Shown here: in pieces, positions 9,360 to 42,154 of the stretch
Position numbering within the stretch: position 1 is the stretch's first letter
Layout of the letters: each line of letters starts with the position of its first letter
IMG/VR virus record: IMGVR_UViG_2795385649_000011
Length of the DNA stretch: 64,000 nucleotides
Direction: 5' to 3' (one strand)
Source: a virus
Lineage: Duplodnaviria; Heunggongvirae; Uroviricota; Caudoviricetes
Translations under genes and position numbers: made by a program
Notes under the pieces: generated by a model
Databases searched by the model: none
What the model was told of the DNA's origin: nothing
The model's input: the letters and a program-made list of their open reading frames with translations, nothing else

Positions 9360-10247
9360 ATGTCCTGGGAATTTGTCACGTTCCTGATCTTCGGCCTCAT
9401 CGCCGTGGCCCTATGTGGCGGCGGCTTCGTCGCCCATCGAATCGACCGGGATGCCGAAGGCCCCTACGTTTCGCTCGTCGCCGGAGGTATTGCCCTCGTA
9501 GTCGCTGTCGTCGTCCTTTTGCTGGGCTGCTTCACTGTCGTCGGAACCCGAAAAGTCGGCATCGAAACCGTGTTCGGAAAGCCCTCCGGGGAAACACTTT
9601 CCAACGGGCTGCACTGGAAGAGGCCTTGGGCAACGGTCGATGAGATGGACGCCGCCGTCCAGATCGACAAGTACGAAGGGGACCACCGGATCAAGGTCAG
9701 ACTCGGTAACTCATCCACCGCCGATGCGGATGTGTCCGTGCGCTGGCAGATCAAACAGGATGCCGCCGATGAGCTGTACGTCCAGTACCGATCATTCGAC
9801 AACGTCCGAACCAACCTCATCACCAGGAACTTGCAGGTCGCGCTCAATGACGTGTTTTCCAAGCTGGACCCACTGGCGACCAAGTGGGCCAACGGCTTAC
9901 CGCTGGAGACATTCGCCAAGGAGACCTCCGAGAAGCTGCGGAAGCTTGTCGGTGAGCAGGTGGACATCCTCGACGTAGCCGTGCCCACCATCGACTACGA
10001 CGACGGCACCGAAGCTCGTATCAATGAGCTGAACGCGGAACGCGCGAACACCGCCAAGGCCGAGCAGGCGAAGAAGACGGCCACCGAACAGGCGGAAGCG
10101 AACCGCATCCTCGCCTCGTCTGTATCCAACGACCCCAACGTGATTGTTCAGAACTGCATCACCAAGGCACTCGATAAAGGCATGTCCCCGTGGGGCTGCT
10201 GGCCCGGTACTAGCGCTCTCGCCACGACCCCCGCCCCAACCAAATAA
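9360..10247 (+). CDS. SPFH / band-7 (prohibitin-HflK/C-like) membrane protein
   Basis: N-terminal TM segment, SPFH core, coiled-coil C-terminus (AKAEQAKKTATEQAEANRILA). Confidence 0.6.
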   Translation: MSWEFVTFLIFGLIAVALCGGGFVAHRIDRDAEGPYVSLVAGGIALVVAVVVLLLGCFTVVGTRKVGIETVFGKPSGETLSNGLHWKRPWATVDEMDAAVQIDKYEGDHRIKVRLGNSSTADADVSVRWQIKQDAADELYVQYRSFDNVRTNLITRNLQVALNDVFSKLDPLATKWANGLPLETFAKETSEKLRKLVGEQVDILDVAVPTIDYDDGTEARINELNAERANTAKAEQAKKTATEQAEANRILASSVSNDPNVIVQNCITKALDKGMSPWGCWPGTSALATTPAPTK

Positions 10248-14510: not shown

Positions 14511-15475
14511 TGGGTGACAAGACAGGCATAGAGTGGGCCGACTCGACCTGGAACCCAATTACGGGTTGCGACAAGGTATCTCCAGGTTGTGACCACTGCT
14601 ATGCGGAGACGTTTGCCGAGCGCTGGCGAGGGACCGAGGGGCATTACTTCGAGCACGGGTTCGATGTTCAGTTGCGCCCCGACAAGCTCGCGTTGCCGCT
14701 GCGCTGGACCAAGCCGCGCAAGGTGTTCGTCAACTCGATGTCAGATCTGTTCCACGAAAAGGTGTCTGACGAGTACATAGCTCGCGTGTTCTCTGTCATG
14801 GCGTGCGCCGAGCGGCACACATTTCAACTCCTGACCAAGCGGCATGGGCGCATGCGGTCGCTGCTGAACTCAGAAGCATTCCGCGAGTTGGTATTCAAGT
14901 GCCAAGCGCTGGAGTTACCGGGCGATGTGATGGGCGACTACTGGCCGCTGCCCAACGTCTGGTTGGGAGTGAGCGCCGAGGACCAGAAGCGCGCCGACCT
15001 CCGCATCCCAGCACTGCTCGACACCCCCGCCGCCGTCCGGTTCATCAGTGCTGAGCCACTGCTCGGACCGATCGACCTCTCCCGGTTCGTGGAGGACGAT
15101 GGCGAGAAGTTCGACCTTCCGCCACTGAGTTGGGTGATCGTGGGCGGCGAATCCGGCCCCGGCGCAAGGCCGATGCACCCCGACTGGGCGCGATCGTTGC
15201 GCGACCAGTGCGTCGCGGCCGGTGTGCCATTCCTGTTCAAACAGTGGGGCGAGTGGGCACCCAACCAACATCCCCCGCTCCGTGCATGCGTCTGTGACTG
15301 GTACGACGGACGGGAGGCTGACATCTGCCGAAATGATCCTTGCCGCAAGCTGTCCAAGCCGCCGTATGTAGATGATCCACGAGCACAGATGCAACGTGTC
15401 GGCAAGAAGCGCGCCGGGCGTGAGCTGGACGGGCGCACGTGGGACCAGTACCCCGAGAAGGCGGTAGCCCAATGA
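14507..15475 (+). CDS. Phage Gp37/Gp68-family protein
   Basis: 322 aa with the characteristic N-terminus KTGIEWADSTWNPITGCDKVSPGCDHCYAE and conserved GESGPGARPMHPDW. Confidence 0.6.
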   Translation: MMGDKTGIEWADSTWNPITGCDKVSPGCDHCYAETFAERWRGTEGHYFEHGFDVQLRPDKLALPLRWTKPRKVFVNSMSDLFHEKVSDEYIARVFSVMACAERHTFQLLTKRHGRMRSLLNSEAFRELVFKCQALELPGDVMGDYWPLPNVWLGVSAEDQKRADLRIPALLDTPAAVRFISAEPLLGPIDLSRFVEDDGEKFDLPPLSWVIVGGESGPGARPMHPDWARSLRDQCVAAGVPFLFKQWGEWAPNQHPPLRACVCDWYDGREADICRNDPCRKLSKPPYVDDPRAQMQRVGKKRAGRELDGRTWDQYPEKAVAQ

Positions 15476-16113
15476 CGACCGTCTGGTTCGTTTCGGACCT
15501 GCATATCGGGCACGCGCTCGTCGCTGTGATCCGGGCGGAGCGGGCCGGTATCGCCCTGCCGGCCAATCCTGCGGATCGGCAGCTTGTGGCTATCGAGTGG
15601 CATGACCGGACTTTGGCGGAGAAGTGGGATGCCGTCGTTCACCCCGGGGACCAGGTATGGGACTTGGGGGACAACAGCTCTGGGACGAACGCCGCCCAGA
15701 TGAAGTCCCTTGCTTGGCTGTACCGGAGGCCGGGGGAGAAGCACCTAGTGCCCGGCAATCACGACCGATGCCACCCGATGTACCGCGACTCCCACAAATG
15801 GCAGCGCGACTACCTCCAGGTATTCCAGTCGGTGCAGCCGTTCGCGCGGCGCCGTATCGGGGGCCGAACGGTGCTCATGTCGCACCTGCCCTACCAGGGG
15901 GACCACACCACTGCCGAGCGCTACAACCAGTACCGGCTCCGTGATGAAGGCGCGTGGCTTCTCCACGGCCATACCCACAGCACCGCAAGCTATCTGCCTT
16001 ACGTGCATCAGCGCCAGCTTCATGTCGGTGTGGACGCCTGGAACATGGCGCCGGTAGGGCTCGACACCCTCGCAGAAGGCATCGAGTTCCTTGAACGGGG
16101 TGGCGCGTCGTGA
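15472..16113 (+). CDS. Metallophosphoesterase (calcineurin-like phosphatase)
   Basis: VSDLHIGH, GDQVWDLGDN, GNHD, GHTH motifs. Confidence 0.65.
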   Translation: MTTVWFVSDLHIGHALVAVIRAERAGIALPANPADRQLVAIEWHDRTLAEKWDAVVHPGDQVWDLGDNSSGTNAAQMKSLAWLYRRPGEKHLVPGNHDRCHPMYRDSHKWQRDYLQVFQSVQPFARRRIGGRTVLMSHLPYQGDHTTAERYNQYRLRDEGAWLLHGHTHSTASYLPYVHQRQLHVGVDAWNMAPVGLDTLAEGIEFLERGGAS

Positions 16114-24808: not shown

Positions 24809-25646
24809 ACACCCGCAACCCAGAGCAAGACGTGATCGACGCTATCGGCGATCTGGTTGATGAGCAGCTGTCCGGCTACAGCCAGCGAAGCGGATACGAC
24901 TACAACGTCAACCAGGACAAGTGCGCGGTGTGCGGCCGCGAATGGCACGGCCTCGCATTGGGCGGCTGCCCCGGACCATACGGAACACCCGAGCAGAAGA
25001 CGGCCTACCGGAACACGGGCAACCCGTCCTACGGTCAGCGCCGAAACCAACAGGGGATCGGGATGTACCAGACATCAGCGCCCACGATGTTCCAAGTTGA
25101 CGTGGTTCCCGATGTTGACGTGGTCCCACCGGAACCAGCGTGGGGCAGCACTACACGTCGGGCGATCCGCACCATCCGGGTGGGTGGCCGCCCCACACCC
25201 CAGAGGCAACCTGGACCAAGGGTGACCCCACGCCAGGTTGGGAGCATGTCAACCGTGGTCCCGACAAGCCCTGGATGGGCTTCCAGGAGCAGATCACGGG
25301 TATCGAACGAACACCTGACGGACGCATCCCCGAGTACGTCATGACCAACCCCGAGACCGGCGAGGTGGTCAGATTCGACAGCGGACCCATCGAACGGGGC
25401 AATCAGCAGGTGTTCCTAGACGCAAAGCACAACTACACGCCCCTGATCAAGAGTCCAGATGCGCCGTGGACTGAGAACATCCAGAACGAGCTCGTCAGAG
25501 AGGCTCAGCGACAGATACGCGTCCTGCCCCCTGAGACTGGCCTTGAGTGGCACGTCGCTAACCCACAGAGCGCAGCGATAATTCGGAATCTGCTAGAGGG
25601 CCGCGGTCTCGACGTTGACGTGATCTACACCCCGGAGAAGCCATGA
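24805..25646 (+). pseudogene. Two-frame (frameshifted) gene for a putative toxin-like protein; the frameshift lies inside an 18-bp tandem repeat
   Basis: Frame-1 segment 24805-25115 (no ATG; TTG overlapping the upstream TGA) and frame-3 segment 25119-25646 both look protein-like. One missing T in the second copy of GTTGACGTGGT(T)CCC joins them into a single ~280 aa reading frame. Confidence 0.4.
25096..25131. repeat. Tandem 18-bp duplication (GTTGACGTGGTTCCCGAT / GTTGACGTGGTCCCACCG) encoding VDVVPD VDVVP
   Basis: Two adjacent near-identical copies; the second lacks one T relative to the first. Confidence 0.6.
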
Positions 25647-26392
25647 CCGTAGAATTCGATGCTGTGAACGGGCCAACCAACGCGTCTCCCGTCTGGGCGA
25701 GAGAGTCGTTCGTGAACGCGTTCTGGGTCGCGACCGGCGAATCACCCGAATGGATCGCGGCGCGCACCGATGCGCTGCTGACGCAGCTAGGAACGGATCT
25801 GGGAATCGCGCAGTGGGACATCCCGAAGGGGCACCACTGGGAGACTTGGGCTGGGCCCAGCGAGGCATTGGCCGACATCGTTCGGAGCTGCCCGGTGCGC
25901 GAAGCACTCCCTGACGGCGCCAGCGGCGATGCTCTCCCCAGGGAGGGGTACTCGATCGTCCTGAAGGGCGTCGGTCCTGCCATCACTGCCAAGGTCTTCA
26001 TCGGTGCGGGGTCTATCGGTCTCGGCGGGAGACTGCCGGCGCACAACCTCCACATCGACCTGACCGAGACCGCGCCGGGCGGCGTCTCTAGCGAGGTTGG
26101 CGACAAGGTGTGCGCCGCTGTGGCTTCAACCTGGCAGCCCGCCACTTTCACCCTCACTGATCTTGCGGCAATGCGCCTTGCTCGGCGCAACAATTGGAAG
26201 ATCGGTGCCGGATACCGCACCTGGATCAGCAAGGAAGTCGGCGAGATTGACCATCTCGTTGACCTTCTCACAAAGACCGAGCTGGCCGGGGGCACCCTGA
26301 TCTCCGCGCCCGACGACTGGCCCGCTACGCGCGTCGTGGAGGCGGTCACCGCGACCCTCCGCGAGAACGGCCTAGACGAAGTACCTCACTGA
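25643..26392 (+). CDS. Hypothetical protein, candidate immunity protein to the upstream toxin-like gene
   Basis: 249 aa ORF, ATGA-coupled to the toxin-like gene and last gene before the non-coding RNA block. The immunity role is inferred from position only. Confidence 0.45.
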   Translation: MTVEFDAVNGPTNASPVWARESFVNAFWVATGESPEWIAARTDALLTQLGTDLGIAQWDIPKGHHWETWAGPSEALADIVRSCPVREALPDGASGDALPREGYSIVLKGVGPAITAKVFIGAGSIGLGGRLPAHNLHIDLTETAPGGVSSEVGDKVCAAVASTWQPATFTLTDLAAMRLARRNNWKIGAGYRTWISKEVGEIDHLVDLLTKTELAGGTLISAPDDWPATRVVEAVTATLRENGLDEVPH

Positions 26393-26550
26393 GCTGGCAC
26401 CGATATTCGGTAGCCAGGTCGAGGGCCTCGACGGCATACTTTCCCCGGTACGGGAGTCACCTTCCAGCGAATCAACATTTCCTCAAAAAATATGCCCTGA
26501 ACAGGCATTACTGAGGTATAGTTCTTGGCGTAGTCAACAAAAACATGGAT

Positions 26551-26722
26551 GGCGTGAGCAGGACGCGAGTCGGTTATCTGAAAATCATCAGATCGCGGGT
26601 TCGAATCCCGCCGGGCTGCTTGAAAGAGCTTCGGGCTTTCATCGGGCGGAACGTGGCAGAGCGGCCGAATGCATTGATCCAAGATCAACGCCGGTAAGCA
26701 CCTCACACGCCCACGCCATCCC
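26551..26722 (+). ncRNA. YrlA-like Y RNA copy 1 (Ro60-binding stem plus an enlarged tRNA-like module containing a type-II tRNA-like D-arm)
   Basis: 5' GGCGTGAGCAGGACGCGAGTCGGTTATC pairs with 3' CCGGTAAGCACCTCACACGCCCACGCC. Internal T-arm GCGGGTTCGAATCCCGC and D-arm-like GTGGCAGAGCGGCCGAATGC, which matches tRNA-Ser at 1181. Confidence 0.5.
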
Positions 26723-26739
26723 GGATACAACTTCACATT

Positions 26740-26878
26740 GATGATGCGAGCAGGACGCAGGTCGGTTACCACTTCTAATGGAGAGGTCGCGGGTTCGAGT
26801 CCCGTCAGCCGCGAAAGTGGTTGTAGCTCAGTCGGTAGAGCGCTTACCCCCGGTCAGCACACACACGCCCGCATCATC
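26740..26878 (+). ncRNA. YrlA-like Y RNA copy 2 (best-formed copy)
   Basis: Terminal stem GATGATGCG/CGCATCATC plus GAGCAGGACGCAGGTCGGTTACC vs CCGGTCAGCACACACACGCCCG; T-arm GCGGGTTCGAGTCCCGT; 7-bp acceptor-like stem CAGCCGC/GTGGTTG closed by GAAA; D-arm TAGCTCAGTCGGTAGAGCG. Confidence 0.6.
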
Positions 26879-26896
26879 CCCAAGGCTTCGTAGTAG

Positions 26897-27044
26897 ATGG
26901 TGTGAGCAGGACGCAGGATCGGTTATCGCATCTGGAGCGGGTGGTCGCTGGTTCAAATCCAGCTGCGGGCGCGTAGTGCGTCCGTATAGCTCAGCTTGGT
27001 AGAGCACCTAAAACACCGGTCAGCAATCACACGCCCGCACCACC
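26897..27044 (+). ncRNA. YrlA-like Y RNA copy 3
   Basis: GATGGTGTGAGCAGGACGCAGGATCGGTTATC vs CCGGTCAGCAATCACACGCCCGCACCACC; T-arm GCTGGTTCAAATCCAGC; acceptor-like stem CGGGCGC/GCGTCCG closed by GTAGT; D-arm TAGCTCAGCTTGGTAGAGCA. Confidence 0.55.
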
Positions 27045-27076
27045 TACGCGAATCATCAATAACTCCATAGCTTTTC

Positions 27077-27202
27077 GATGTGAGCAGGACGCTCGGTCGG
27101 TTATCACTCAATTGGTAATGCAGGTTCGACCCCTGTCGCTCGCGCCTCGGTGCGGGTGTAAAAGCGAAATCCCGGTCAGCACATACACGCCCACATCACC
27201 CC
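27077..27202 (+). ncRNA. YrlA-like Y RNA copy 4 (degenerate tRNA-like module)
   Basis: GATGTGAGCAGGACGCTCGGTCGGTTATC vs CCGGTCAGCACATACACGCCCACATCACC; T-arm GCAGGTTCGACCCCTGT; GC-rich stem CGCTCGCGC/GTGCGGGTG closed by CTCG; no clear D-arm. Confidence 0.45.
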
Positions 27203-27216
27203 GAACCCCCTTTTGG

Positions 27217-27294
27217 CGCGAGCAGGACGACGGTCGGTTACCCCAACCTCGAAACTGGATGAACCCCGGCGGTCACTCACACGCCCGCGCCACC
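27217..27294 (+). ncRNA. Minimal Y RNA-like hairpin copy 5 (Ro-binding stem only, no tRNA-like module)
   Basis: GGCGCGAGCAGGACGACGGTCGGTTACC pairs with CCGGCGGTCACTCACACGCCCGCGCC across a 23-nt loop; it ends 22 nt before the rsr start. Confidence 0.45.
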
Positions 27295-27315
27295 TAACCC
27301 AGCAAGGAGCTCACG

Positions 27316-29016
27316 GTGGACGTTCTATCCTCGATCAGCACGCGGCGCACCCCTCAGGCCCAGAAGGCGGACCCGCGCCAGGTCAAGAACGCCGCCGGGG
27401 GCTACACCTTCCAGGCCGACGACTGGACCCGGCTCCACCGATTCCTGACCCTCGGCACGACCGGCGGCACCTACTACACCTCCGCCGAGGACCTCACCCG
27501 CGACGCCGCCGATGTCGTGATCCGGCTCGCCGCAACCGATCCCGTCACCCTCGTGCAGAAGATCGTTGAGGTCTCCGAGGCCGGACGCGCCCCCAAGCAG
27601 AACCCGGCCCTGTTCGCGCTCGCTATCGCTTCGGCCTCCGAGAACGTGGAAGGCCGCCGTGCCGCCGCCGCCGCACTGCCCCGAGTCGCGCGCACCGCCA
27701 CCCACCTGTACCTGTTCACCAAGTACATGGAGCAGTTCCGGGGCTGGGGACCGGCGATGAAGCGCGCCGTCTCCAGCTGGTACCTGGACAAGCCCGTGGA
27801 CCGGCTCGCCTACCAGCTGGTCAAGTACCGGCAGCGTGACGGCTGGACCCACCGCGACATGCTCCGGCTCAGCGGCCCCGCCACCAGCGACCCCGCACGC
27901 CGCATGGCGTTCAACTGGGCTGTCGGCAAGGGGCTCAACGACTACAACTGGAAGCAGCCGCTCCTCACTCCGGAGCAGCTCAAGGCCGGAGAGCGCAACC
28001 CCGCTCTACCGAAGCTGCCCAATGTGGAACTGGCTGACGGGCACCCGCTTGCCATCATCGCGGACTACGAAGCCGCGCAGCGTGCCACCACCGTCAACGA
28101 GTGGCTGGCGATCATCCGCCGGGGCAACGGCCTACCGTGGGAGGCGTTCCCCGACAAGGCCCTCACCGAGCCTGCGATCTGGGAGGCGCTGATCGAGCAC
28201 GGCCTCCCGCAGACCGCCCTCATGCGGCAGCTGCCCCGCCTAACCCGCCTCGGCGTGCTGAACGGTCAGCTCGGCAGCCGGGTCTCCGCGCAGCTCCAGG
28301 ACACAGACCGGCTACGAAAGGGCCGCGTCCACCCGATCAATGTCCTTGTCGCACAGCGCACCTATGCCTCTGGGCGTTCTGCGCGCGGTGAGTCCACCTG
28401 GACTCCGAACCGCCGCATCGTTGACGCGCTCGACGCCGCGTTCTACAACGCCTACGGCGCCGTCGAGCCCTCGGGTAAGCGGACCCTGCTGGCACTGGAC
28501 ATCTCCGGCTCCATGAGCGCCGCGATCTCCGGTATGCCGCTGACGTGCCGCGAGGCCGCCGCCGCGCTCGCACTGGTGACCGCCAACGTGGAGCCCAACC
28601 ACGACATCATCGGGTTCACCGCCGGGGCCGGTGGGAGCTTCCGCTCATCAGGGATCACGGAGTTGGACATCACGCCGCGCCGCCGCCTCGATGACGTGTG
28701 CCGATACACCGCAGGCCTCCCTATGGGCGCTACCGACTGCGCGCTCCCCATGATCTGGGCGAAGGCGCAGCTTCGCCCCTACGACGCCATCGTGATCCTC
28801 ACCGACAACGAGACCTGGTACGGGGGTATCCACCCGCACCAGGCTCTCACCGAGTACCGGAACAAGCTCAGCCTGGACACCAGCCTGATGGTGGTCGCGA
28901 TGACCGGCGGTCGGCAGACCATCGCAGATCCTTCGGACCCGCGCCAGCTCGACGTGTCCGGGTTCGATAGCGCTGTACCGCAGCTCATCTCGGACTTCGC
29001 CCGAGGTGACCTGTAA
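27316..29016 (+). CDS. rsr: Ro60 ortholog Rsr: TROVE-domain RNA-binding protein with C-terminal vWA (MIDAS) domain
   Basis: 566 aa; N-terminal TROVE-like region; C-terminal vWA with MIDAS motif LLALDISGSMS...T...TD; AAGGAG RBS before the GTG start. Directly downstream of the five Y RNA-like genes. Confidence 0.7.
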   Translation: MDVLSSISTRRTPQAQKADPRQVKNAAGGYTFQADDWTRLHRFLTLGTTGGTYYTSAEDLTRDAADVVIRLAATDPVTLVQKIVEVSEAGRAPKQNPALFALAIASASENVEGRRAAAAALPRVARTATHLYLFTKYMEQFRGWGPAMKRAVSSWYLDKPVDRLAYQLVKYRQRDGWTHRDMLRLSGPATSDPARRMAFNWAVGKGLNDYNWKQPLLTPEQLKAGERNPALPKLPNVELADGHPLAIIADYEAAQRATTVNEWLAIIRRGNGLPWEAFPDKALTEPAIWEALIEHGLPQTALMRQLPRLTRLGVLNGQLGSRVSAQLQDTDRLRKGRVHPINVLVAQRTYASGRSARGESTWTPNRRIVDALDAAFYNAYGAVEPSGKRTLLALDISGSMSAAISGMPLTCREAAAALALVTANVEPNHDIIGFTAGAGGSFRSSGITELDITPRRRLDDVCRYTAGLPMGATDCALPMIWAKAQLRPYDAIVILTDNETWYGGIHPHQALTEYRNKLSLDTSLMVVAMTGGRQTIADPSDPRQLDVSGFDSAVPQLISDFARGDL

Positions 29017-29018
29017 CG

Positions 29019-29453
29019 ATGGGCAGGGTCGGCGGCCCCGCGCCGCGCCCCTGCGCGTCGTGCCCCTACCGGGAGGACGTACCCAGCGGCGTGTGGCATG
29101 CCACCGAGTATCAGAAACTCATCGCCTACGACGGCCCCACCTCGGAGCAGCCGCCCGGCCTGTTCCTGTGCCACCAGACGGACGCCGCCGACGCAGCGGC
29201 CCGGCTTTGTGCGGGCTGGGTCGGCTGCCACGGCGGCGAGGAACTACTTGCGATACGCATCGGCGCGGCCACGGGCGCGCTGTCTCCCGAAGACGTACAG
29301 GCCGCATTCGAATATGTGAGCCCTGTCCCGCTGTTCGAGTCAGGCCGTGACGCAGCAGAGCACGGCATCTTCGAGATCGAAGACCCCGGAGAGGAAGCCA
29401 TCACCGCGATCGAGAAGATATCCCGCCGCCGCGTGGACATCAGGGGACGTTGA
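29019..29453 (+). CDS. Hypothetical Cys-rich protein downstream of rsr
   Basis: 144 aa; CASCPYREDVPSG...CHQTDAADAAARLCAGWVGCHGG. Confidence 0.4.
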   Translation: MGRVGGPAPRPCASCPYREDVPSGVWHATEYQKLIAYDGPTSEQPPGLFLCHQTDAADAAARLCAGWVGCHGGEELLAIRIGAATGALSPEDVQAAFEYVSPVPLFESGRDAAEHGIFEIEDPGEEAITAIEKISRRRVDIRGR

Positions 29454-29671
29454 TGGACCCGAGGGCACAGCAAGCCCGCGAGCACCACCGGCTGGCCGGG
29501 GAAGAGCGCGACTCCGCCAGCCAGCACCGAAGCCAGCGCGACCGGCTCGTACGGGAACTCTGGACGAACGAGCGCGAGAAGTGGACCCACGCCACTCTCG
29601 CCACCGCCGTGAAGTGCAGCCCCCAACTCATCCAGAAAATCATCGACGGTAGAACGGCCACCTCCCGATGA
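29450..29671 (+). CDS. Hypothetical small protein
   Basis: 73 aa ORF with overlap coupling. Confidence 0.35.
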   Translation: MMDPRAQQAREHHRLAGEERDSASQHRSQRDRLVRELWTNEREKWTHATLATAVKCSPQLIQKIIDGRTATSR

Positions 29672-29838
29672 GTAGCGGCCCTTTCCATATCGTGAACCGG
29701 CTCAACGGGAAGCACGTTGGCCCGTTCACGACTGAAACGGACTGCGCGCTAGCGAAAACCATTGCTACACCGGACTGGACAACGGGAATTGTCATGGACA
29801 AGAAGCAATTCAAGAAGCACTTGGAGCGTGGACTGTGA
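29668..29838 (+). CDS. Hypothetical small protein (56 aa)
   Basis: ATG 29668, stop 29836-38 overlapping the next GTG start. Confidence 0.3.
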   Translation: MSSGPFHIVNRLNGKHVGPFTTETDCALAKTIATPDWTTGIVMDKKQFKKHLERGL

Positions 29839-30692
29839 GTACAGAAGCACGCCACGGCACGGAGCGGCACCGCGCTATCGCGGACGAGAACACGATTCTT
29901 CGTGGGCAGGTCGGCTCCGGCCTGCATGGTGTCACGACCGGCGCCGACGACCGCGACGAAATGGGCATCTGCATCGAACCTCCCGAGGCCGTAATCGGTT
30001 TGGAGAAGTTCGAGCAGTACATGTACCGCACCCAACCGGACGGCGCCCGCTCCGGCCCCGGCGACCTCGATCTGTGTGTCTACAGCCTGCGGAAGTGGAC
30101 ACGGCTGGCCGCCAATGGCAATCCCTCAGTGCTGCTGATGCTTTGGATACCCGACAATGAGCTGACGGTGAAAAGCCAACTCGGCGCCGAACTTCAGGCA
30201 GCCTCGGAGATGTTCGTCACCACGCAGGCTGGACAGAAGTTCTTGAGCTACTTGAACTCTCAGCGTGAAGGACTCGAAGGTACCCATCACCGGCACACCA
30301 ACCGGCCCGAACTCATCGAACAGTACGGTTTCGACACCAAGTACGCGTATCACGCCCTGCGCCTCGGCATGCAGGGTATCCAGCTCGTCACGGAGAGGAA
30401 GCTGCACCTGCCGATGGTCAAGGCCCATCGTGATGCGCTGCTCCGCGTTCGGCGCGGCGAGACCTCGCTCCCCGAGGTGAAGAGCTGGCTCGCGGATCTG
30501 ACCTGGAGTCTGGAGCACTTCATCTCGACCGAGCCTCTGCCGGATACCCCGGACTGGGTTCGGATCAACACGTGGTTGGTTGATATGTACCAGCGGCACT
30601 GGCGTACTCGCGGTACCAGGTCCGAAGCCCGACTCTCCGGCGCGATCCGAAACGCACACAACATCGCCGTCAGTCGAAGTAGATGGCGATGA
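29835..30692 (+). CDS. Pol-beta-superfamily nucleotidyltransferase with helical C-terminal domain
   Basis: N-terminal NTase motif GQVGSGLHGVTTGADDRDEMGI (GS...[DE]x[DE]); 285 aa. Confidence 0.55.
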   Translation: MSTEARHGTERHRAIADENTILRGQVGSGLHGVTTGADDRDEMGICIEPPEAVIGLEKFEQYMYRTQPDGARSGPGDLDLCVYSLRKWTRLAANGNPSVLLMLWIPDNELTVKSQLGAELQAASEMFVTTQAGQKFLSYLNSQREGLEGTHHRHTNRPELIEQYGFDTKYAYHALRLGMQGIQLVTERKLHLPMVKAHRDALLRVRRGETSLPEVKSWLADLTWSLEHFISTEPLPDTPDWVRINTWLVDMYQRHWRTRGTRSEARLSGAIRNAHNIAVSRSRWR

Positions 30693-36188: not shown

Positions 36189-36685
36189 CCGGTCCGGGTC
36201 TCGCTGTCCCGCAGTCGTTCACGGTCATGTACGACACGTGGGCGGGCGTCGCAGACCGCAACACCGACCTGGATAACGAGCCCGACATCCGCCCCATCAC
36301 GGCCACGGTCCTGTTCCGGTACCGGCTCCCGCAGGGCTGGGCGTTCCGGGCCGCGAACTACGACCCCCGCCCAACGGACTTCGCCCTCGACACGTTTGAG
36401 GGGCGCCTCGATGAAGGCCGCCTCCGCCACCCCAACGGCACTCTCGGGATGAAGCTGTTCGCCAACACCGCGCTCCTCGCGTGGCCGGCAGACCTCTTCA
36501 TCGACATCAGCTTCTCGAACGTGGTGTTCAACCGGGGGGACCGTACCTGGCGGAACTTCGCGATCATCGCGCCCGTGACCGCCGGTACCGAGGTGAATCT
36601 GACCACGGTGCAGCGCTACCCGTTCCTCACCCAGACCCAGTACGAGCAGTGGTTCCAGAACAACCCGGCGCCGAACCCGGTCTGA
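36185..36685 (+). CDS. Hypothetical protein
   Basis: 166 aa ORF. Confidence 0.4.
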   Translation: MTGPGLAVPQSFTVMYDTWAGVADRNTDLDNEPDIRPITATVLFRYRLPQGWAFRAANYDPRPTDFALDTFEGRLDEGRLRHPNGTLGMKLFANTALLAWPADLFIDISFSNVVFNRGDRTWRNFAIIAPVTAGTEVNLTTVQRYPFLTQTQYEQWFQNNPAPNPV

Positions 36686-36756
36686 CCCTCACTCGCCGAC
36701 TCTGGCTCCCCAGCGACGAAACCCAGCCCACACCCAGCAGCACAGGAGAACCCAGC

Positions 36757-37095
36757 ATGAGTCACGCCACCCCAAGCAGCCGTGCAGACATCGACCAACG
36801 CTTCAACTACCACCTTTCCGGCGAGGACCGGGTGGTCACGCTCGACTACGTCCGGGGGCAATGCGCCCACATCGCCCACTGCCTTGATGAGGTGCTGCCG
36901 CCCGGTCGAGAGAAGTCCCTCGCGTTGACGAAGCTGGAGGAGGCCCTGATGTGGTCCAACGCCTCCATCGCGAAGACCGCCCCCCAGCCGGTTGGCACAG
37001 TCAGATCCGGGGTCATCGGCTTCATCCCTGCCACCGAGGCTGAACTGATTGATGATTCGGGCTCGATCAACACTGCAGCAGGGCCATCCGCATGA
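36757..37095 (+). CDS. Hypothetical protein
   Basis: ATG 36757 in frame with track ORF 36481..37095. Confidence 0.4.
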   Translation: MSHATPSSRADIDQRFNYHLSGEDRVVTLDYVRGQCAHIAHCLDEVLPPGREKSLALTKLEEALMWSNASIAKTAPQPVGTVRSGVIGFIPATEAELIDDSGSINTAAGPSA

Positions 37096-38471: not shown

Positions 38472-38695
38472 TGGCAGACAACGTCATCCAACTCGGCGAG
38501 CACCGCACCCCACCGACCACCAACCACCAGTGCGTCAAATGCGGTAGCGAATGGTTCCGCCTGGACGGCACCCTGGCCGGACCGGGCGCACCCGCCCACG
38601 GCGCCGTGGTGCTGGCAGCCGACGATCGCATGCGCATCACCGGTTACTGCGGTACACCCCGCTGCCTGGAGTGCGGCCACCTGGTGGCGGTCTAG
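38471..38695 (+). CDS. Small zinc-ribbon protein
   Basis: CVKCGSEWF...CGTPRCLECGH. Confidence 0.4.
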   Translation: MADNVIQLGEHRTPPTTNHQCVKCGSEWFRLDGTLAGPGAPAHGAVVLAADDRMRITGYCGTPRCLECGHLVAV

Positions 38696-39423
38696 TGCTG
38701 TTCGTGGTGGTTGGTCCGCCGGCAGCAGGCAAGTCCACATGGGTGCGGGACAACTCGCGGCCCGGTGACATCACCATCGACTACGACGCCCTCGCCTGCA
38801 CCCTCACCCCACAAGACGACAGCCCCCACCGCCACGACCACCCCGACCACGTGAAGGCAGTCACCAAGGCGGCCCGACAGGCAGCCATCGACACCGCCCT
38901 CACCCTCGTCGGTGAGCACGACGTGTTCCTGATCCACTCCACCCCGAGCACCGCGATGCTCACGAAGTACCGCTCGTACGGCGCTGAGGTCATCACCATC
39001 GACCCCGGCCAAGACACCGTCATGGAACGCGCACGCGCCGAACGGCCATGGCAGCTACAGGGCGCCATCAAACGCTGGTACGAGGAACACCCCACCACCG
39101 GCAGCACCCCCGCCCAGCATGTGCCCGGCCTCGACGCACAAGGACGCCCACGCGGCCGCCACTACCAAGAACTCAAGGCCACCTTCCGTAAGGAGTGCGA
39201 GGAGCGCGGCGACGTGTGCTGGCTGGACCAGCGCCCCATCGACTACAGCCTCAAAGCACCCCACCCGGACAGTTTCTCCGTGGACCACGCCATCCCGGTA
39301 TCCGAGGCCCCCGAGCTCGCGCTGGACCCCAGGAACTTCCGACCCAGCCACCTGAACTGCAACATCCGCCGAGGCGACGCCGAACCCAACATCGCCATCG
39401 GCCAACCGTCCGAAACCTGGTAA
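38695..39423 (+). CDS. P-loop NTPase / kinase-like domain fused to a C-terminal HNH endonuclease
   Basis: Walker A VVVGPPAAGKST at the N-terminus; C-terminal SVDHAIPVSE...HLNCNIRRGD HNH motif. Confidence 0.5.
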   Translation: MLFVVVGPPAAGKSTWVRDNSRPGDITIDYDALACTLTPQDDSPHRHDHPDHVKAVTKAARQAAIDTALTLVGEHDVFLIHSTPSTAMLTKYRSYGAEVITIDPGQDTVMERARAERPWQLQGAIKRWYEEHPTTGSTPAQHVPGLDAQGRPRGRHYQELKATFRKECEERGDVCWLDQRPIDYSLKAPHPDSFSVDHAIPVSEAPELALDPRNFRPSHLNCNIRRGDAEPNIAIGQPSETW

Positions 39424-39828: not shown

Positions 39829-40464
39829 GTGTCCCAGCTAAAAACCTTCAAGGGCAACCCGCGTAGAGGTTCGGTCCCGGATATCGCGGCCTCGCTTACC
39901 GCCAATGGCCAGTACCGGCCCATCGTGGTGAACCGTGGGACGCACACCGGGCGCCCCAACGAGGTGTTGGCCGGTAACCACACCTTGCTCGCGGCGCGGG
40001 AACTCGGCTGGGCAGATATCGACTGCTGGCTGGTGGACGTGGATGAGCAGCAGGCCAAGGCGATTGTCGTTGCTGACAACAAGATCCCAGCCTTGGGTGG
40101 GTACGACAACGAGGCGTTGCTGGAAATCCTGGAGTCCCTGGACACCCTGGATGGCACCGGTTACGTGCAAGACGATCTCGATGACCTGGCGGCGGCCCTG
40201 GAGGAGCTGGAACCGGTGCCGGAGGACGAGTTGGCCGGAAACCAGGGCACCGCAACGTCCCTGGAGGACTTGAAGACCAACTATGACCAGTCCGACCAGC
40301 GGATGGTCGTGATGACGTTCGTCGGCGACGAGTACCTGTGGGTGGTCGAGACGTTGCAGCGGGTGGCGGACGCTCACGCACTGGAGAGCAACGCATCCGT
40401 GTTGGTGCACCTGCTCAAGCAGGAAGAGACCGCGCTGGACGCAGCGCCAGCGGTCGCGGAGTGA
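39829..40464 (+). CDS. ParB-like N-terminal domain protein
   Basis: GQYRPIVVNRGT...VLAGNHTLLAARELG ParB/Srx motif; acidic C-terminus. Confidence 0.6.
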   Translation: MSQLKTFKGNPRRGSVPDIAASLTANGQYRPIVVNRGTHTGRPNEVLAGNHTLLAARELGWADIDCWLVDVDEQQAKAIVVADNKIPALGGYDNEALLEILESLDTLDGTGYVQDDLDDLAAALEELEPVPEDELAGNQGTATSLEDLKTNYDQSDQRMVVMTFVGDEYLWVVETLQRVADAHALESNASVLVHLLKQEETALDAAPAVAE

Positions 40465-41297
40465 CACCGGTGGAGCGGCTGAGTTTACGGCGGGTGGTGA
40501 GCCCGGAGGAGGCGACAACCCTCGTCGGTACGCGGGTCGGGGAGCACGAGCCGACCCACAGCGAGCCATTCATCGCTACAGACGCCGATACCGGTGAGAC
40601 CGTGATGGCGGTGCTGCCGGTGGAGGCGCCGGATCTGCGGCGGGCCTGCCTGTCATTGAAGTACACGGATCTGCGGCGTGCGTCGGGCGCGAAGAACCTG
40701 TCGGCCAACTTCGGGTACCAGCCCCGGCGGCCAAGCTACAGCCGCGACGCGTGCCGGGCGTCCGGTGTCGCCAAGGAGTTCCCGGCAGCCGAGGCAGCGC
40801 TGGATGCGTGGGCCGGGGCGCTGGCGAGGATGCTCCGCCAAATTGACGCGAAAATCGAGGCCCGCGACCGGGAAACCATGCTCCAGGTCGGATCTACCTG
40901 GAAGCTGGGCGATTCCGAGCTCTGGACTTCGGGTGTCATCAACCGGAGCTCGACGCTGCCCTACCACCGCGACGGGTTCAACTTCCCAACCTGGAGCGCG
41001 ATGCCAGTGTTCCGGCGCGGCATGAACGGTGGGCACCTGCACATCCCCGAGTACGGGGTGGTGCTGCCGTGCCGAGACAGCACCGCGGTCTTCTTCCCGG
41101 GTCATCAGCTGGTGCATGGGGTCACCCCGATGCAGCTCCGTAAGCCGGACGGATACCGGCTGAGCGTCGTCTATTACGCCCTCAAGGGCATGAAATCGTG
41201 CTTGGAGGGTGCATTGGAGACTGAATACGCCCAAAAGGCGCGCACCGCTCGGGAGCAGAATCAGGCGCGGCTCATCGCTGAGCGGAGGCAGCCCTAG
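40461..41297 (+). CDS. 2OG-Fe(II) dioxygenase, candidate TET/JBP-family nucleic-acid base hydroxylase
   Basis: GTG overlapping the upstream TGA; HxD (LPYHRDGF), distal His (LVHGVTP) about 55 aa later, then Arg (LRKPDGYR), which is the DSBH 2OG-oxygenase spacing. Confidence 0.45.
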   Translation: MTPVERLSLRRVVSPEEATTLVGTRVGEHEPTHSEPFIATDADTGETVMAVLPVEAPDLRRACLSLKYTDLRRASGAKNLSANFGYQPRRPSYSRDACRASGVAKEFPAAEAALDAWAGALARMLRQIDAKIEARDRETMLQVGSTWKLGDSELWTSGVINRSSTLPYHRDGFNFPTWSAMPVFRRGMNGGHLHIPEYGVVLPCRDSTAVFFPGHQLVHGVTPMQLRKPDGYRLSVVYYALKGMKSCLEGALETEYAQKARTAREQNQARLIAERRQP

Positions 41298-42154
41298 TGA
41301 GGCGCGCCCCGGCCCGCGAGTACCAGATCGTGATCCCCTCCTACCAGCGCGCCGAAGGGCTGGAGCGGAAGACGCTCGCCTGGCTGAACGCGACCGGAGT
41401 GGACCCGGCCCGGATCACGGTGTTCCTCCACGACAACGATCCGCAGCTGGAGGCCTACCAGGAGGTGGCCGGCAGGACGGGTGTCCGCCTCAACGCCACC
41501 CCGATGCGCGGTATCACGGCACAGCGGACCTACATACCCACCCAGTTCGCGCCTGGTACCCCGATTGTGTGCCTGGACGACGACGTGACGGGCCTGGTGG
41601 AGGCAGTGGACTCGAAAACCCTTCGCCCCGTGGCTGATGTGGATTCACTGTTCCGGCGGATGTTCACCGAGACCGCTGGGCGGGACCTGTACGTGTGGGG
41701 TCTGTCGCCGGTCGTCAATGCCTTCTACATGTCGCCGGGCCGCGTCAGCGAAGGCCTCCGATTTCTGATCTTCACCGTGATCGGGTTCTTCAACCGGCCC
41801 GGCCATCCCGTCCACGAGTTCACCGTCCCGTACAAGGACGAGCACGAAACGAGCCTGCGCGCATGGTGGTACGACGGTGGCACAGTCCGGCACGACGGAA
41901 TTGCCGCCCAAGCGAACTACTACACGGACCCTGGCGGCTGCCAGGCGCCCGGTGAGTTCCAAAGAACCCCCGCCAAGGTCGCTTTCAGCGTCGAGGAGCT
42001 GGAGAAGCAGTGGCCGGGCCTGGTGCGCAGGAACACCCGCAAGAAGGACACCGGCTACATCGAGATCACCCTCGCCCCGAAGAAGCGGCACGCCGGGCAC
42101 CCCCCGACCACGCCGCCACCCGGCGTCCGCTCCGCGAAGGCCGGGGGCCGGTGA
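41297..42154 (+). CDS. GT-A-fold glycosyltransferase-like protein (candidate TET/JBP-associated base glycosyltransferase)
   Basis: N-terminal YQIVIPSYQRAEGL Rossmann-like start and DxD-like CLDDDV; translationally coupled to the dioxygenase. Confidence 0.4.
   Translation: MRRAPAREYQIVIPSYQRAEGLERKTLAWLNATGVDPARITVFLHDNDPQLEAYQEVAGRTGVRLNATPMRGITAQRTYIPTQFAPGTPIVCLDDDVTGLVEAVDSKTLRPVADVDSLFRRMFTETAGRDLYVWGLSPVVNAFYMSPGRVSEGLRFLIFTVIGFFNRPGHPVHEFTVPYKDEHETSLRAWWYDGGTVRHDGIAAQANYYTDPGGCQAPGEFQRTPAKVAFSVEELEKQWPGLVRRNTRKKDTGYIEITLAPKKRHAGHPPTTPPPGVRSAKAGGR

Follow-up and report, generated by a model that had tools for sequence, protein, structure and literature searches.

A candidate Ro60-Y RNA locus of the actinobacterial YrlA type, with an RlaP-family nucleotidyltransferase gene, in a Mycobacteroides-type prophage

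INTRODUCTION

Conservation of Ro60-Y RNA particles extends from bacteria to humans, yet what they do in bacteria and phages remains poorly understood. In Mycobacterium smegmatis, the Y RNA YrlA coimmunoprecipitates with Rsr; RNase P cleaves it, and CCA is added to it (PMC4201824). Ro together with Y RNAs has also been published for mycobacteriophages, e.g., phage ET08 (Chen et al. 2014, RNA 20:1715; PMC4201824), and 355 phage records carry "Ro-like RNA binding protein" as a routine annotation. The Ro60 of Thermus phage phiLo binds two upstream Y-like RNAs (Yrl1/Yrl2) and host PNPase in a RYPER-like complex (PMC12135203), PNPase being the tethered enzyme in both Deinococcus radiodurans and this phage. 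A further set of known systems joins Ro and Y RNAs to RNA repair, as in the Salmonella rsr-yrlBA-rtcBA operon and the systems of Burroughs and Aravind (2016) as cited in later papers, which count RlaP as a member; an example of an RlaP operon is rtcB-rlaP-rtcA of Pseudomonas, whose RlaP adds 1 to 2 NMP to RNA 3'-OH ends and favors damaged RNA (PMC12776372). Rsr and YrlA have been proposed as RNA ligase cofactors (bioRxiv 10.1101/312249).

Here, we describe a locus in a 64-kb stretch of viral DNA, called the window below, in which five Y RNA units, a Ro60 gene, three further open reading frames (ORFs), and a nucleotidyltransferase (NTase) gene follow one another. Because Ro-Y RNA loci of mycobacteriophages have been published, the present locus belongs to a known kind. 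Our preferred reading, which we consider probable, is a phage-borne Ro60-Y RNA ribonucleoprotein (RNP) locus of the actinobacterial YrlA type, with RlaP, that handles damaged RNA in phage growth.

RESULTS

Setting of the locus in the prophage

The window encodes RecT, terminase, portal, major head, tape-measure, and minor tail proteins, and its left edge carries a host aminotransferase gene with tRNA-Ser and tRNA-Arg genes, which agrees with the prophage setting proposed in an earlier note on this DNA. Neighboring genes of the locus meet in overlaps of 1 to 10 nt or a 2-nt gap, and the locus appears to be a single tightly packed operon of a Mycobacteroides-type prophage. Its gene order recurs in many public assemblies, and an identical Ro protein is present in at least 53 blocks of an assembly collection. 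A scan for sigma-70 promoters between 26200 and 31400 returned none, and a scan for intrinsic terminators over the same interval stayed at chance level, with none detected flanking the Y RNA array.

What would a prophage gain from such a locus? One answer is that the module is lysogenic-conversion cargo, which, like the chromosomal Rsr of Deinococcus, helps the host to survive UV, oxidative, or antibiotic stress rather than serving lytic growth. The chromosomal Rsr and Y RNAs of D. radiodurans are stress induced (PMC4201824), the prophage is frequent among sequenced Mycobacteroides-type isolates, and the 920-nt gene-free gap occupied by the Y RNA array could house a promoter of its own. However, a long same-strand gene run surrounds the locus on both sides, with recombination/replication genes before it and structural genes after it, with neither integrase nor repressor adjoining and no flanking terminators found, and Ro is also carried by strictly lytic phages, such as the Bixzunaviruses of cluster C. 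We therefore regard the cargo explanation as improbable and continue with a role in phage growth as the preferred one.

A full-length Ro60/Rsr protein

The rsr gene (27316..29016, + strand) encodes a protein of 566 aa, composed of a TROVE ring and a von Willebrand factor A (vWA) domain with MIDAS and identified by Pfam, PHROGs, and PDB similarity. A Shine-Dalgarno sequence, AAGGAG (27304..27309, + strand), can be read 6 nt 5' of its GTG start. The earlier note had recognized the Ro60/Rsr domain organization from the letters, and profile searches bear it out: Pfam places TROVE (PF05731) on residues 23 to 347 with 171 bits (E = 6.8e-50) and vWA_Ro60 (PF25045) on residues 389 to 562 at the C terminus with 190 bits (E = 3.5e-56), the latter covering the full model. 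The MIDAS is intact; the protein contains LDISGSMS, and an alignment with five phage Ro proteins shows no variation at D395/S397/S399, T473, and D497. In a PDB sequence search, residues 3 to 565 aligned with residues 7 to 533 of D. radiodurans Rsr (2nvo; E = 6.2e-98), and the human and Xenopus Ro60 structures matched end to end (E about 1e-95 and 4e-93, respectively). The protein also belongs to phrog_850. Its score against the NCBIfam Rsr equivalog NF041674 is 466.7 bits, below the 900-bit cutoff; it is a homologue and not the NCBI-defined equivalog, which leaves its family membership uncontradicted. The sequence comparisons thus confirm a full-length Ro60/Rsr, for which binding of Y RNA and misfolded RNA is predicted.

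Five Y RNA units upstream of rsr

To describe the Y RNAs, we used a covariance model, R1, built on YrlA-like relatives; its seed included the second and third units of the array (U2 and U3) and excluded the other three. Run unfiltered on both strands of the whole window, R1 matched five units with 146, 117, 75, 66, and 60 bits, all on the + strand and 20 to 770 nt 5' of rsr, and the next best match, at the host tRNAs, reached 17.9 bits. Five Y RNA genes had been claimed upstream of rsr, and these five, and only these, are found in the 64 kb. The window contains five exact copies of the 10-mer GAGCAGGACG, all of them inside the array.

The units differ in shape. U2 (26738..26880, + strand; 143 nt) is of the canonical YrlA type, with a terminal stem, an inner helix, a T-arm, a 7-bp acceptor-like stem, and a D-arm (R1, 146 bits, in the seed; Rfam YrlA, 34.2 bits, E = 2e-5). 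U3 (26894..27046, + strand; 153 nt) is likewise of the YrlA type with a complete tRNA-like domain (R1, 116.7 bits, in the seed; Rfam YrlA, full-model match of 37.9 bits, E = 1.7e-6). The complete YrlA tRNA-like module is confined to these two units. It is partial in U1 (26546..26722, + strand; 177 nt), where, besides the Ro-binding terminal stem and a long insert, there are a T-arm GCGGGUUCGAAUCCCGC, a long acceptor-like hairpin, and an unusual, class-II-like D-arm GUGGCAGAGCGGCC (R1, 66.0 bits, E = 2e-13, outside the seed; stem motifs by nhmmer), and in U4 (27072..27202, + strand; 131 nt), whose D-arm is degenerate and not clear, the terminal stem, T-arm, and acceptor-like hairpin being present (R1, 75.4 bits, E = 1.6e-15, outside the seed). 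U5 (27210..27296, + strand; 87 nt) consists of the Ro-binding stem only, the tRNA-like part of the model being deleted in its match (R1, 60.1 bits, E = 5e-12, outside the seed); a tRNA-like T-arm is thus present in four of the five units. U1 is conserved in related loci (L003 to L007), U4 has a near-identical copy in prophiGD43A-5 (L001, 4744 to 4874), and short units like U5 adjoin Ro in many loci.

Comparison with other genomes was based on 89 Ro loci, gathered by an alignment-based scan of genome contigs; a query with the single Ro protein gave none. Across these loci, R1 found 208 units, nearly all on the same strand as Ro and within ~700 nt upstream of it. For 54 distinct units from relatives, in constructs with an artificial GAAA linker substituted for the variable middle, 89.2% of the cells of the terminal stem were paired, versus 33 to 43% with slid partners; 11 of its 17 pairs had changed on both sides, and none of 500 shuffles reached the observed values. 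The RNAalifold consensus structure of the tRNA-like domain shows compensatory changes in 22 of 33 pairs. The loop motif GACGCAGG is only an approximation of the published Y RNA motif GNCGAAN0-1G.

General RNA models see less of the array. No unit reached the Rfam gathering score of 69 bits for YrlA (RF02553), the scores of U3 and U2 being the best; at the gathering threshold, the whole window yielded only the two host tRNAs, and the YrlA signal appeared solely in E-value mode. As for the probes designed against M. smegmatis Y RNAs, U2 matches 21 of the 23 nt of the YrlA-5' probe target, shuffled controls do as well as the YrlA-3' probe, which matches 16 of 16 nt at the 3' end of U4, and the window contains no match to the YrlB probe.

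Could the five repeats instead be tRNA genes in decayed or permuted form, or remnants of attachment sites? T-arm and D-arm sequences are indeed present in the units, Rfam gives a subthreshold tRNA match of 25.3 bits at 26867 to 26971, and the orthologous unit of prophiGD43A-5 has been annotated as tRNA-Thr. However, neither ARAGORN nor Rfam at its gathering threshold calls a tRNA in the array, the arms of a unit come in a permuted order (T-arm, acceptor-like stem, D-arm), and the position of the anticodon arm is taken by the long covarying 5'/3' stem. Moreover, U5 is devoid of any tRNA-like part, and the units track rsr across the 89 loci. A tRNA origin of this sort is extremely improbable, and the comparative evidence supports all five as Y RNA units, with U2 and U3 of the full YrlA type; their expression and binding to Rsr are predicted.

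A small protein linked to Ro and two lineage-specific neighbors

The earlier gene list rightly placed a Cys-rich protein and an NTase downstream of rsr and overlooked two ORFs between them, at 29453 to 29671 and 29668 to 29838. The first of these (29453..29671, + strand) encodes a protein of 72 aa, p72 (also called p73), whose AlphaFold model (pLDDT 79.8) shows a long helix at the N terminus and, at the C terminus, a pair of helices resembling a helix-turn-helix (HTH). The ORF finder places the start of p72 at a TTG, 29450.

A p72 gene lies directly downstream of Ro in 40 of the 89 actinobacterial or phage Ro loci (~45%), and the reverse search found Ro just upstream in 45 of 46 viral loci with p72. 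It is the most faithful and best-conserved partner of Ro in the compared loci. When the neighbors of the 89 Ro loci were clustered in search of further conserved partners, what remained were clusters of housekeeping genes specific to particular lineages (ABC transporter, epimerase, L,D-transpeptidase, and glycosidases, among others). A word-indexed protein search with p72 found 10 relatives only, NCBIfam and PHROGs hold no family for it, and Pfam gives only a weak match to HTH_31 (E = 0.003). A Foldseek search with the AlphaFold model returned nothing significant (best E = 0.8), the subthreshold matches being to HTH regulators. Most likely, p72 would regulate the locus by binding DNA; a function as an adaptor subunit is less likely. 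As far as checked, a role for it as a component of Ro-Y RNA systems has apparently gone unrecognized.

The gene between rsr and p72 (29019..29453, + strand) encodes the Cys-rich protein, 144 aa, of family DUF6283 (PF19800, 129.9 bits, E = 6e-38). Its CxxC...CHQ...C...H pattern is invariant in 34 sequences and probably forms a zinc site; a PDB sequence search gave nothing significant (best E = 0.23), and the protein matches no known fold. DUF6283 stands between Ro and p72 in the close lineage of this prophage only, as a lineage-specific insertion, and in other phages it is found in unrelated neighborhoods, with no link to Ro found elsewhere. The proposal that the Cys-rich protein is part of the module is therefore not sustained. 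The other overlooked ORF (29668..29838, + strand; 56 aa) overlaps each neighboring gene by 4 nt and is called as a gene in public assemblies; it matches no family in Pfam, PHROGs, or NCBIfam and is kept only in the closest relatives (L003, L004, and L006). Both DUF6283 and the 56-aa ORF may be passengers.

RlaP beside Ro

The last gene of the locus (29835..30692, + strand) encodes a Pol-beta NTase of 285 aa that belongs to the RlaP family (PF10127, 122.9 bits versus a cutoff of 23, E = 2e-35, model positions 14 to 249 of 249; phrog_388). A Pol-beta NTase had been expected two genes downstream of rsr; the enzyme class was right, and the gene is the fourth after rsr. Its catalytic motif, GSG...DDRDE...GDLD (G27-S28-G29, D39/D41, and D77/D79), is invariant in the alignment. 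A PDB sequence search with the protein found nothing significant.

RlaP homologues adjoin Ro in further loci (L004 to L007, L121, L126, L036, and Nocardioides L047, L057, and L088), lying downstream of Ro in the present lineage and L121 and upstream in L126, L036, and the three Nocardioides operons. Each of these three Nocardioides species has the order RlaP-Y RNA-Ro-p72-Hen1-Pnkp. Among the Ro-adjacent cases, RlaP identity is only 43 to 68%, and gene order and divergence indicate that RlaP joined Ro on several independent occasions. The RNA repair connection suggested in the earlier note gains from this assignment, since RlaP stands for "RNA ligase-associating Pol-beta," with RlaP genes adjoining Ro independently in the Pnkp/Hen1 operons of Nocardioides and in other viral contigs. 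Y RNA 3' ends as the RlaP substrate and a role of the module in lysogeny, both proposed in that note, go further than the sequence evidence.

The suggestion that the module is self-contained fares less well. In 52 ORFs between 1 and 42 kb, searches at E of ≤1e-4 revealed no RNA ligase (RtcB, Rnl, or Pnkp), no kinase/phosphatase, and no exonuclease partner, so that the host, or prophage DNA outside the window, would need to supply the effectors. A Metallophos protein (15439 to 16113) and a protein with weak AAA_33 and HNH matches (38551 to 39423) are encoded far from Ro and unlinked to it.

Does the adjacency of RlaP and Ro have a functional meaning? The Ro60/Y RNA/p72 unit and RlaP could be functionally independent accessory genes brought together by phage mosaicism, in which case Ro and Y RNA alone might, for instance, sequester or redirect host PNPase while RlaP carries out separate tRNA repair. 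Phage records hold 620 RlaP homologues and 355 Ro proteins, mostly nonadjacent; mycobacteriophages of cluster C carry both, ~25 kb apart, and RlaP is absent beside Ro in most Ro phages (prophiGD43A-5, Sparky, LinStu, and Cashline). The closest named RlaP (75% identity) lies in a prophage region without Ro, so the adjacency seen here could be mosaic chance. In addition, DUF6283 and the 56-aa ORF are interposed between Ro and RlaP, and the related locus L003 has Ro-DUF6283-p72 with no RlaP within the fetched stretch. Against independence stand the repeated RlaP-Ro adjacency in varied gene orders and at such divergent RlaP identities, with Hen1-Pnkp also present in the Nocardioides operons, and the overlapping gene junctions in the window, which fit coexpression. 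On balance, we regard functional independence as unlikely, and the reading in which Ro60, the Y RNAs, and RlaP act on damaged RNA together remains the preferred one.

DISCUSSION

How might such a locus work? Since U5 ends 20 nt short of the rsr start codon, the Y RNAs would be made as a single transcript, or as several closely spaced ones, continuing into rsr. The stem of each unit would bind the outer face of the Ro ring, and the tRNA-like module, where present, may gate the ring or tether it to host enzymes. During phage growth, the resulting RNP would handle structured RNAs (for example, tRNA and rRNA) that are damaged or misfolded; RlaP would restore one or two 3' nucleotides on RNAs trimmed by host ribonuclease toxins, and a host ligase would then reseal them. 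p72 would regulate the locus by binding DNA or, less likely, serve as an adaptor.

A bolder proposal goes further on two counts: that p72 is an integral third component, as regulator or subunit, of actinobacterial and actinophage Ro60-Y RNA systems in general and that, in this prophage, five tRNA-mimicking Y RNAs of differing shape form with RlaP a ligase-less counterdefense device against host toxins that cleave tRNA or rRNA. Taken as a whole, this is a tentative idea that we would sooner doubt than adopt.

The interest of the locus lies in what it brings together: one block holds five distinct Y RNAs, Ro60, a tightly linked small protein, and an RNA repair NTase of a biochemically defined family. 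Because the prophage is common in Mycobacteroides-type isolates, it offers a compact and genetically tractable example of Ro60. The comparative results, i.e., the linkage of p72 and the recurrent joining of RlaP to Ro, overturn no current view and provide testable hypotheses on the connection between the Ro RNP and RNA repair.

Comparison with known systems

Among the repair operons, the shared feature is the colocation of Ro, Y RNAs, and the RlaP NTase, to which the Nocardioides relatives add p72, Hen1, and Pnkp. Unlike those operons, the window lacks a ligase (RtcB, Rnl, or Pnkp), a cyclase, and an RtcR regulator, so the locus would be at most a partial repair system relying on host enzymes.

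Thermus phage phiLo (NAR 2025, PMC12135203) resembles the present locus in having a phage Ro60 with Y-like RNAs immediately upstream and no phage effector nuclease. It differs in belonging to a different phylum and in having two RNAs, and its complex has been studied biochemically, whereas the RNP of the present locus is predicted from sequence; the text of the phiLo paper is silent on a tRNA-like domain, RlaP, and any partner resembling p72.

In the rsr locus of M. smegmatis with YrlA and YrlB (PMC4201824), Ro60 is likewise directly downstream of same-strand Y RNAs, and YrlA has the same succession of terminal stem, T-arm, 7-bp acceptor-like stem, and D-arm, U2 being near identical over the 5' probe target. 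Two Y RNAs are characterized there, compared to five units here, and the present locus is part of a temperate prophage in which DUF6283, p72, the 56-aa ORF, and RlaP follow rsr. The mycobacterial chromosomal loci compared (L011 to L017) are without p72 and RlaP.

The closest named relatives are prophiGD43A-5/prophiT37-1 of Mycobacteroides abscessus and phages Sparky/Farewell, with Ro identities of 75% and 64%; their GenBank annotations name Ro as "Ro-like RNA binding protein." Neither DUF6283 nor RlaP is beside Ro in these genomes, and their upstream Y RNA units, six and two, respectively, are unannotated except for one labeled tRNA-Thr. Like the present locus, both have a p72 homologue (gp53 and gp37) directly downstream of Ro.

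The Ro60 homologue and its upstream array

The module extends over 26540-30692. Its rsr gene (27316-29016, + strand; GTG start, with AAGGAG 6 nt upstream) encodes a 566-aa protein for which the earlier note proposed a TROVE and vWA organization, and the profile search with Pfam recovered both the TROVE domain (6.8e-50) and the Ro60-specific vWA domain (3.5e-56). The product also matches PHROG 850 "RNA-binding protein," aligns over its entire length with the D. radiodurans Rsr structure (2nvo; E 6e-98) and with the Ro60 structures of Xenopus and humans, and has a MIDAS (LDISGSM, T473, D497) that five aligned phage Ro proteins share without change. Because of these Pfam, PDB, and MIDAS matches, its sequence marks it as a clear Ro60 homologue, but not as an NCBI "equivalog," since it scores 467 bits with the NCBIfam Rsr equivalog model against a cutoff of 900. 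An insertion of ~35 residues (NWKQPLLTPEQLKAGERNPALPKLPNVELADGHPLA) at residues about 213 to 247 is shared by the Ro proteins of this lineage and prophiGD43A-5 and is missing from those of Sparky, LinStu, and Cashline (alignment A2, with five phage Ro proteins).

The gene-free gap upstream of rsr spans 920 nt and contains five repeats (U1 to U5; 26546-27296, + strand), each starting with ...G(U/C)GAGCAGGACG...GGUCGGUUA(U/C)C at the 5' side and ending with ...CCGGUCAGCA...CACACGCCC(A/G)C... at the 3' side. Rfam made no call in the array at the gathering threshold; in E-value mode, the YrlA model was matched over its full length by U3 (37.9 bits, E 1.7e-6) and at its tRNA-like core by U2 (34.2 bits). 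The comparison set comprised five IMG/VR prophage relatives with 93 to 98% identical Ro, named phages, and 80 Ro-bearing actinobacterial genomes. Searches with nhmmer profiles for the motifs at the two ends matched 62 loci, nearly all less than 500 nt upstream of Ro, and within the window they matched the five units only. A covariance model (R1), built from the RNAalifold alignment of YrlA-like sequences with U1, U4, and U5 outside its seed, was run unfiltered on both window strands. It gave five matches, of 146, 117, 75, 66, and 60 bits, and the next best, at host tRNAs, reached only 17.9 bits, in agreement with the five upstream Y RNA genes previously noted. R1 identified 208 units in 89 Ro loci, commonly in arrays of two to four; five units are found in this lineage, and six are found in prophiGD43A-5. 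The five-unit array is at the high end among these loci and not unique.

Conserved fold and types of the Y RNA units

Two analyses support a conserved fold. For the terminal stem, the 5' and 3' segments of 54 distinct units were joined via an artificial GAAA linker and pairs were counted: 89.2% of cells are paired, compared to 33 to 43% with the partners slid, and none of 500 shuffles attained the observed values. Both sides have changed at 11 of 17 stem pairs, as exemplified by columns 7 and 83 (AU 26, GC 20, CG 3). Full-length folding of 25 full-length YrlA-like sequences with RNAalifold yielded the terminal stem, an inner helix (GrUCGG/CCGGUC), a T-arm whose loop reads GGUUCGAnUCC, an acceptor-like stem of 7 bp that covaries heavily, and a D-arm (GUAGCUCA..GGUAGAGC), with compensatory changes at 22 of 33 pairs. 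This consensus fold of the array relatives is the published YrlA architecture.

The units differ in type. U2 and U3 are of the canonical YrlA type, and U2 matches the target of the M. smegmatis YrlA-5' probe at 21 of 23 nt; the M. smegmatis YrlA coprecipitates with Rsr, is cleaved by RNase P, and gains CCA (PMC4201824). U1 has a class-II-like D-arm and a long acceptor-like hairpin, U4 retains a T-arm with a degenerate D-arm, and U5 is predicted to be a bare Ro-binding stem.

In prophiGD43A-5, the GenBank feature "tRNA-Thr (tgt)" (MW584167.1 26001-26079; 4250-4328 in comparison locus L001) lies inside a YrlA-type unit and is overlain by an R1 match of 138.7 bits (L001 4251-4392); it is probably a misannotated Y RNA and not a tRNA. 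Promicromonospora and related genomes carry extra strong YrlA-like matches (89 to 112 bits) on the opposite strand, 1.5 to 2.7 kb upstream of Ro and distinct from the usual same-strand units (L042 5163-5306, L046 5354-5496, L033 5422-5564, L053 5327-5467, L031 6424-6563, and L035 6025-6154, all on the - strand).

A small protein linked to Ro

The genes after rsr are tightly packed. The DUF6283 gene follows after a 2-nt gap and overlaps the 72-aa ORF (p72; 29453-29671) by 1 nt (TGATG), the junctions of the 72-aa ORF with a 56-aa ORF and of the latter with the RlaP gene are ATGA and GTGA, and the RlaP gene overlaps the next ORF.

The earlier note omits p72. Using tblastn and an iterated HMM, p72 was found directly downstream of Ro in 40 of the 89 loci, both in phages (Sparky gp37, prophiGD43A-5 gp53, and Cashline gp36) and in chromosomes of Nocardioides, Cellulomonas, Micropruina, Actinomyces, and Propionibacteriaceae. 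The reciprocal search from p72 placed Ro immediately upstream in 45 of 46 IMG/VR loci; the single exception is a p72 homologue at L132 3995-4216 (IMGVR_UViG_2690315802_000001). The predicted model of p72 has a long helix (residues 4 to 40) and two short ones (47 to 54 and 58 to 66). No family for it exists in NCBIfam or PHROGs, and Pfam gives just a weak HTH_31 match (E 0.003); together with HTH regulators below threshold in Foldseek, this match weakly hints at DNA binding. We suppose that p72 would act as a regulator of the proposed RNA quality control and repair accessory or as an adaptor.

The Cys-rich product is DUF6283 (PF19800, 6e-38), with an invariant CxxC...CHQ...C...H; its confident model (pLDDT 91.8) matched no solved fold. 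It had been counted as part of the module, a view that is not supported: only in this close lineage does its gene separate Ro from the 72-aa gene, and the genes around it in Lumos, Bipper, and a Rhizobium phage are unrelated to Ro. DUF6283 is treated as a passenger. Mycobacteroides salmoniphilum is the named source of a 92%-identical DUF6283.

Recurrent adjacency of RlaP and Ro

The nucleotidyltransferase encoded at 29835 can now be assigned to a family, RlaP (PF10127, 122.9 bits over almost the full model), with GSG...DDRDE...GDLD invariant. Several observations count against a link of RlaP with Ro. RlaP is found in 620 phage records and Ro in 355, usually apart; cluster C phages have both, about 25 kb from each other; no RlaP is near Ro in prophiGD43A-5, Sparky, LinStu, or Cashline; and the closest named RlaP (75% identity) is in a prophage region without Ro. 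However, the adjacency recurs in independent lineages with differing gene orders, which speaks for a link. Besides this lineage (L004 to L007), RlaP is found beside Ro downstream in L121 and upstream in L126, and about 2 kb upstream on the divergent strand in L036. Three Nocardioides species (L047 6596-13883, L057, and L088) encode a chromosomal operon in the order RlaP, Y RNA(s), Ro, p72, Hen1 (PF12623, 5e-115), and Pnkp (PNKP_ligase 4e-161, plus kinase and phosphatase domains), by its predicted domains a complete RNA repair operon around the same Ro-p72-RlaP trio. Beyond p72 and RlaP, no Ro neighbor recurs across lineages in the comparison of the 89 loci.

Prophage setting and nearby genes

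As was supposed, the window represents all or part of a prophage: its left edge holds a host aminotransferase gene, tRNA-Ser, and tRNA-Arg, and beyond these come RecT, many small ORFs, and the terminase, portal, major capsid, tape-measure, and tail genes, with the + strand carrying nearly all of them. Among named relatives, M. abscessus prophages are the closest, and at least 53 blocks of the assembly collection contain identical Ro with the same gene order.

Directly upstream of the array (25140-26392), a 168-aa ORF with a weak Tox-REase-5 match precedes a 249-aa ORF, and the two may form a toxin/immunity pair. The REase-domain gene encodes 627 to 634 aa in identical-Ro assemblies L094, L096, and L097, and the copy in the window, like that of L095, looks like a truncated variant. 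A Band_7/SPFH protein (9360-10247) adjoins RecT, 17 kb from Ro; no tRNA-like RNA was found beside its gene, and a passage of one preprint, citing others, ties Band-7 proteins and tRNA-like RNA to RtcB repair systems (bioRxiv 10.1101/312249). A batch scan assigned an Acb2/Tad1 hairpin domain (E 4e-16) to a protein whose position, about 36757-37095 within ORF 36481-37095, is taken from the matching gene in L094/L095; it is a candidate nucleotide sponge directed against CBASS or Thoeris. The stretch immediately preceding the terminase gene (40338-42154) encodes a weak match to Tet/JBP-type dioxygenases (E 1.4e-5, under the Pfam cutoff) and, after it, a TET-associated glycosyltransferase (TAGT); as a pair, they could hypermodify DNA bases.

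Proposed role and relation to known systems

Y RNAs are known to bind Ro by the terminal stem and to tether or gate it, with host PNPase as the effector in Deinococcus and Thermus phage phiLo (PMC12135203; bioRxiv 10.1101/312249), and the tRNA-like domain of YrlA is recognized by tRNA enzymes (PMC4201824). RlaP extends damaged RNA 3' ends by one or two nucleotides and has been proposed as an antidote to ribotoxins trimming RNA after cleavage (PMC12776372). By analogy, the Y RNAs would bind Ro through the terminal stem, tethering or gating it, and the RlaP of this locus would act likewise on damaged RNA 3' ends. A search of the 52 ORFs lying between 1 and 42 kb found no RNA ligase, RtcA, or PNPase. 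The locus is most likely a phage RNA quality control and repair accessory dependent on host nucleases and ligases. RlaP may tail the Y RNAs themselves, as suggested in the earlier note, given the CCA gained by M. smegmatis YrlA halves. The locus may act in lytic growth or in lysogeny; its placement within a long same-strand block and the occurrence of Ro in strictly lytic phages favor lytic expression.

Knowledge of Ro in mycobacteriophages dates from 2003 and that of YrlA-type Y RNAs adjoining phage Ro from 2014 (PMC4201824), a phage complex of Ro60, Y RNA, and PNPase has been solved (PMC12135203), and RlaP and its repair context have been described (PMC12776372); therefore, the locus joins a known class. 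Compared to the literature other than Burroughs & Aravind 2016, what it adds is modestly new: the linkage of p72 to Ro, the repeated occurrence of RlaP beside Ro, with the Nocardioides Ro-Hen1-Pnkp operons among the cases, and the array of five units.
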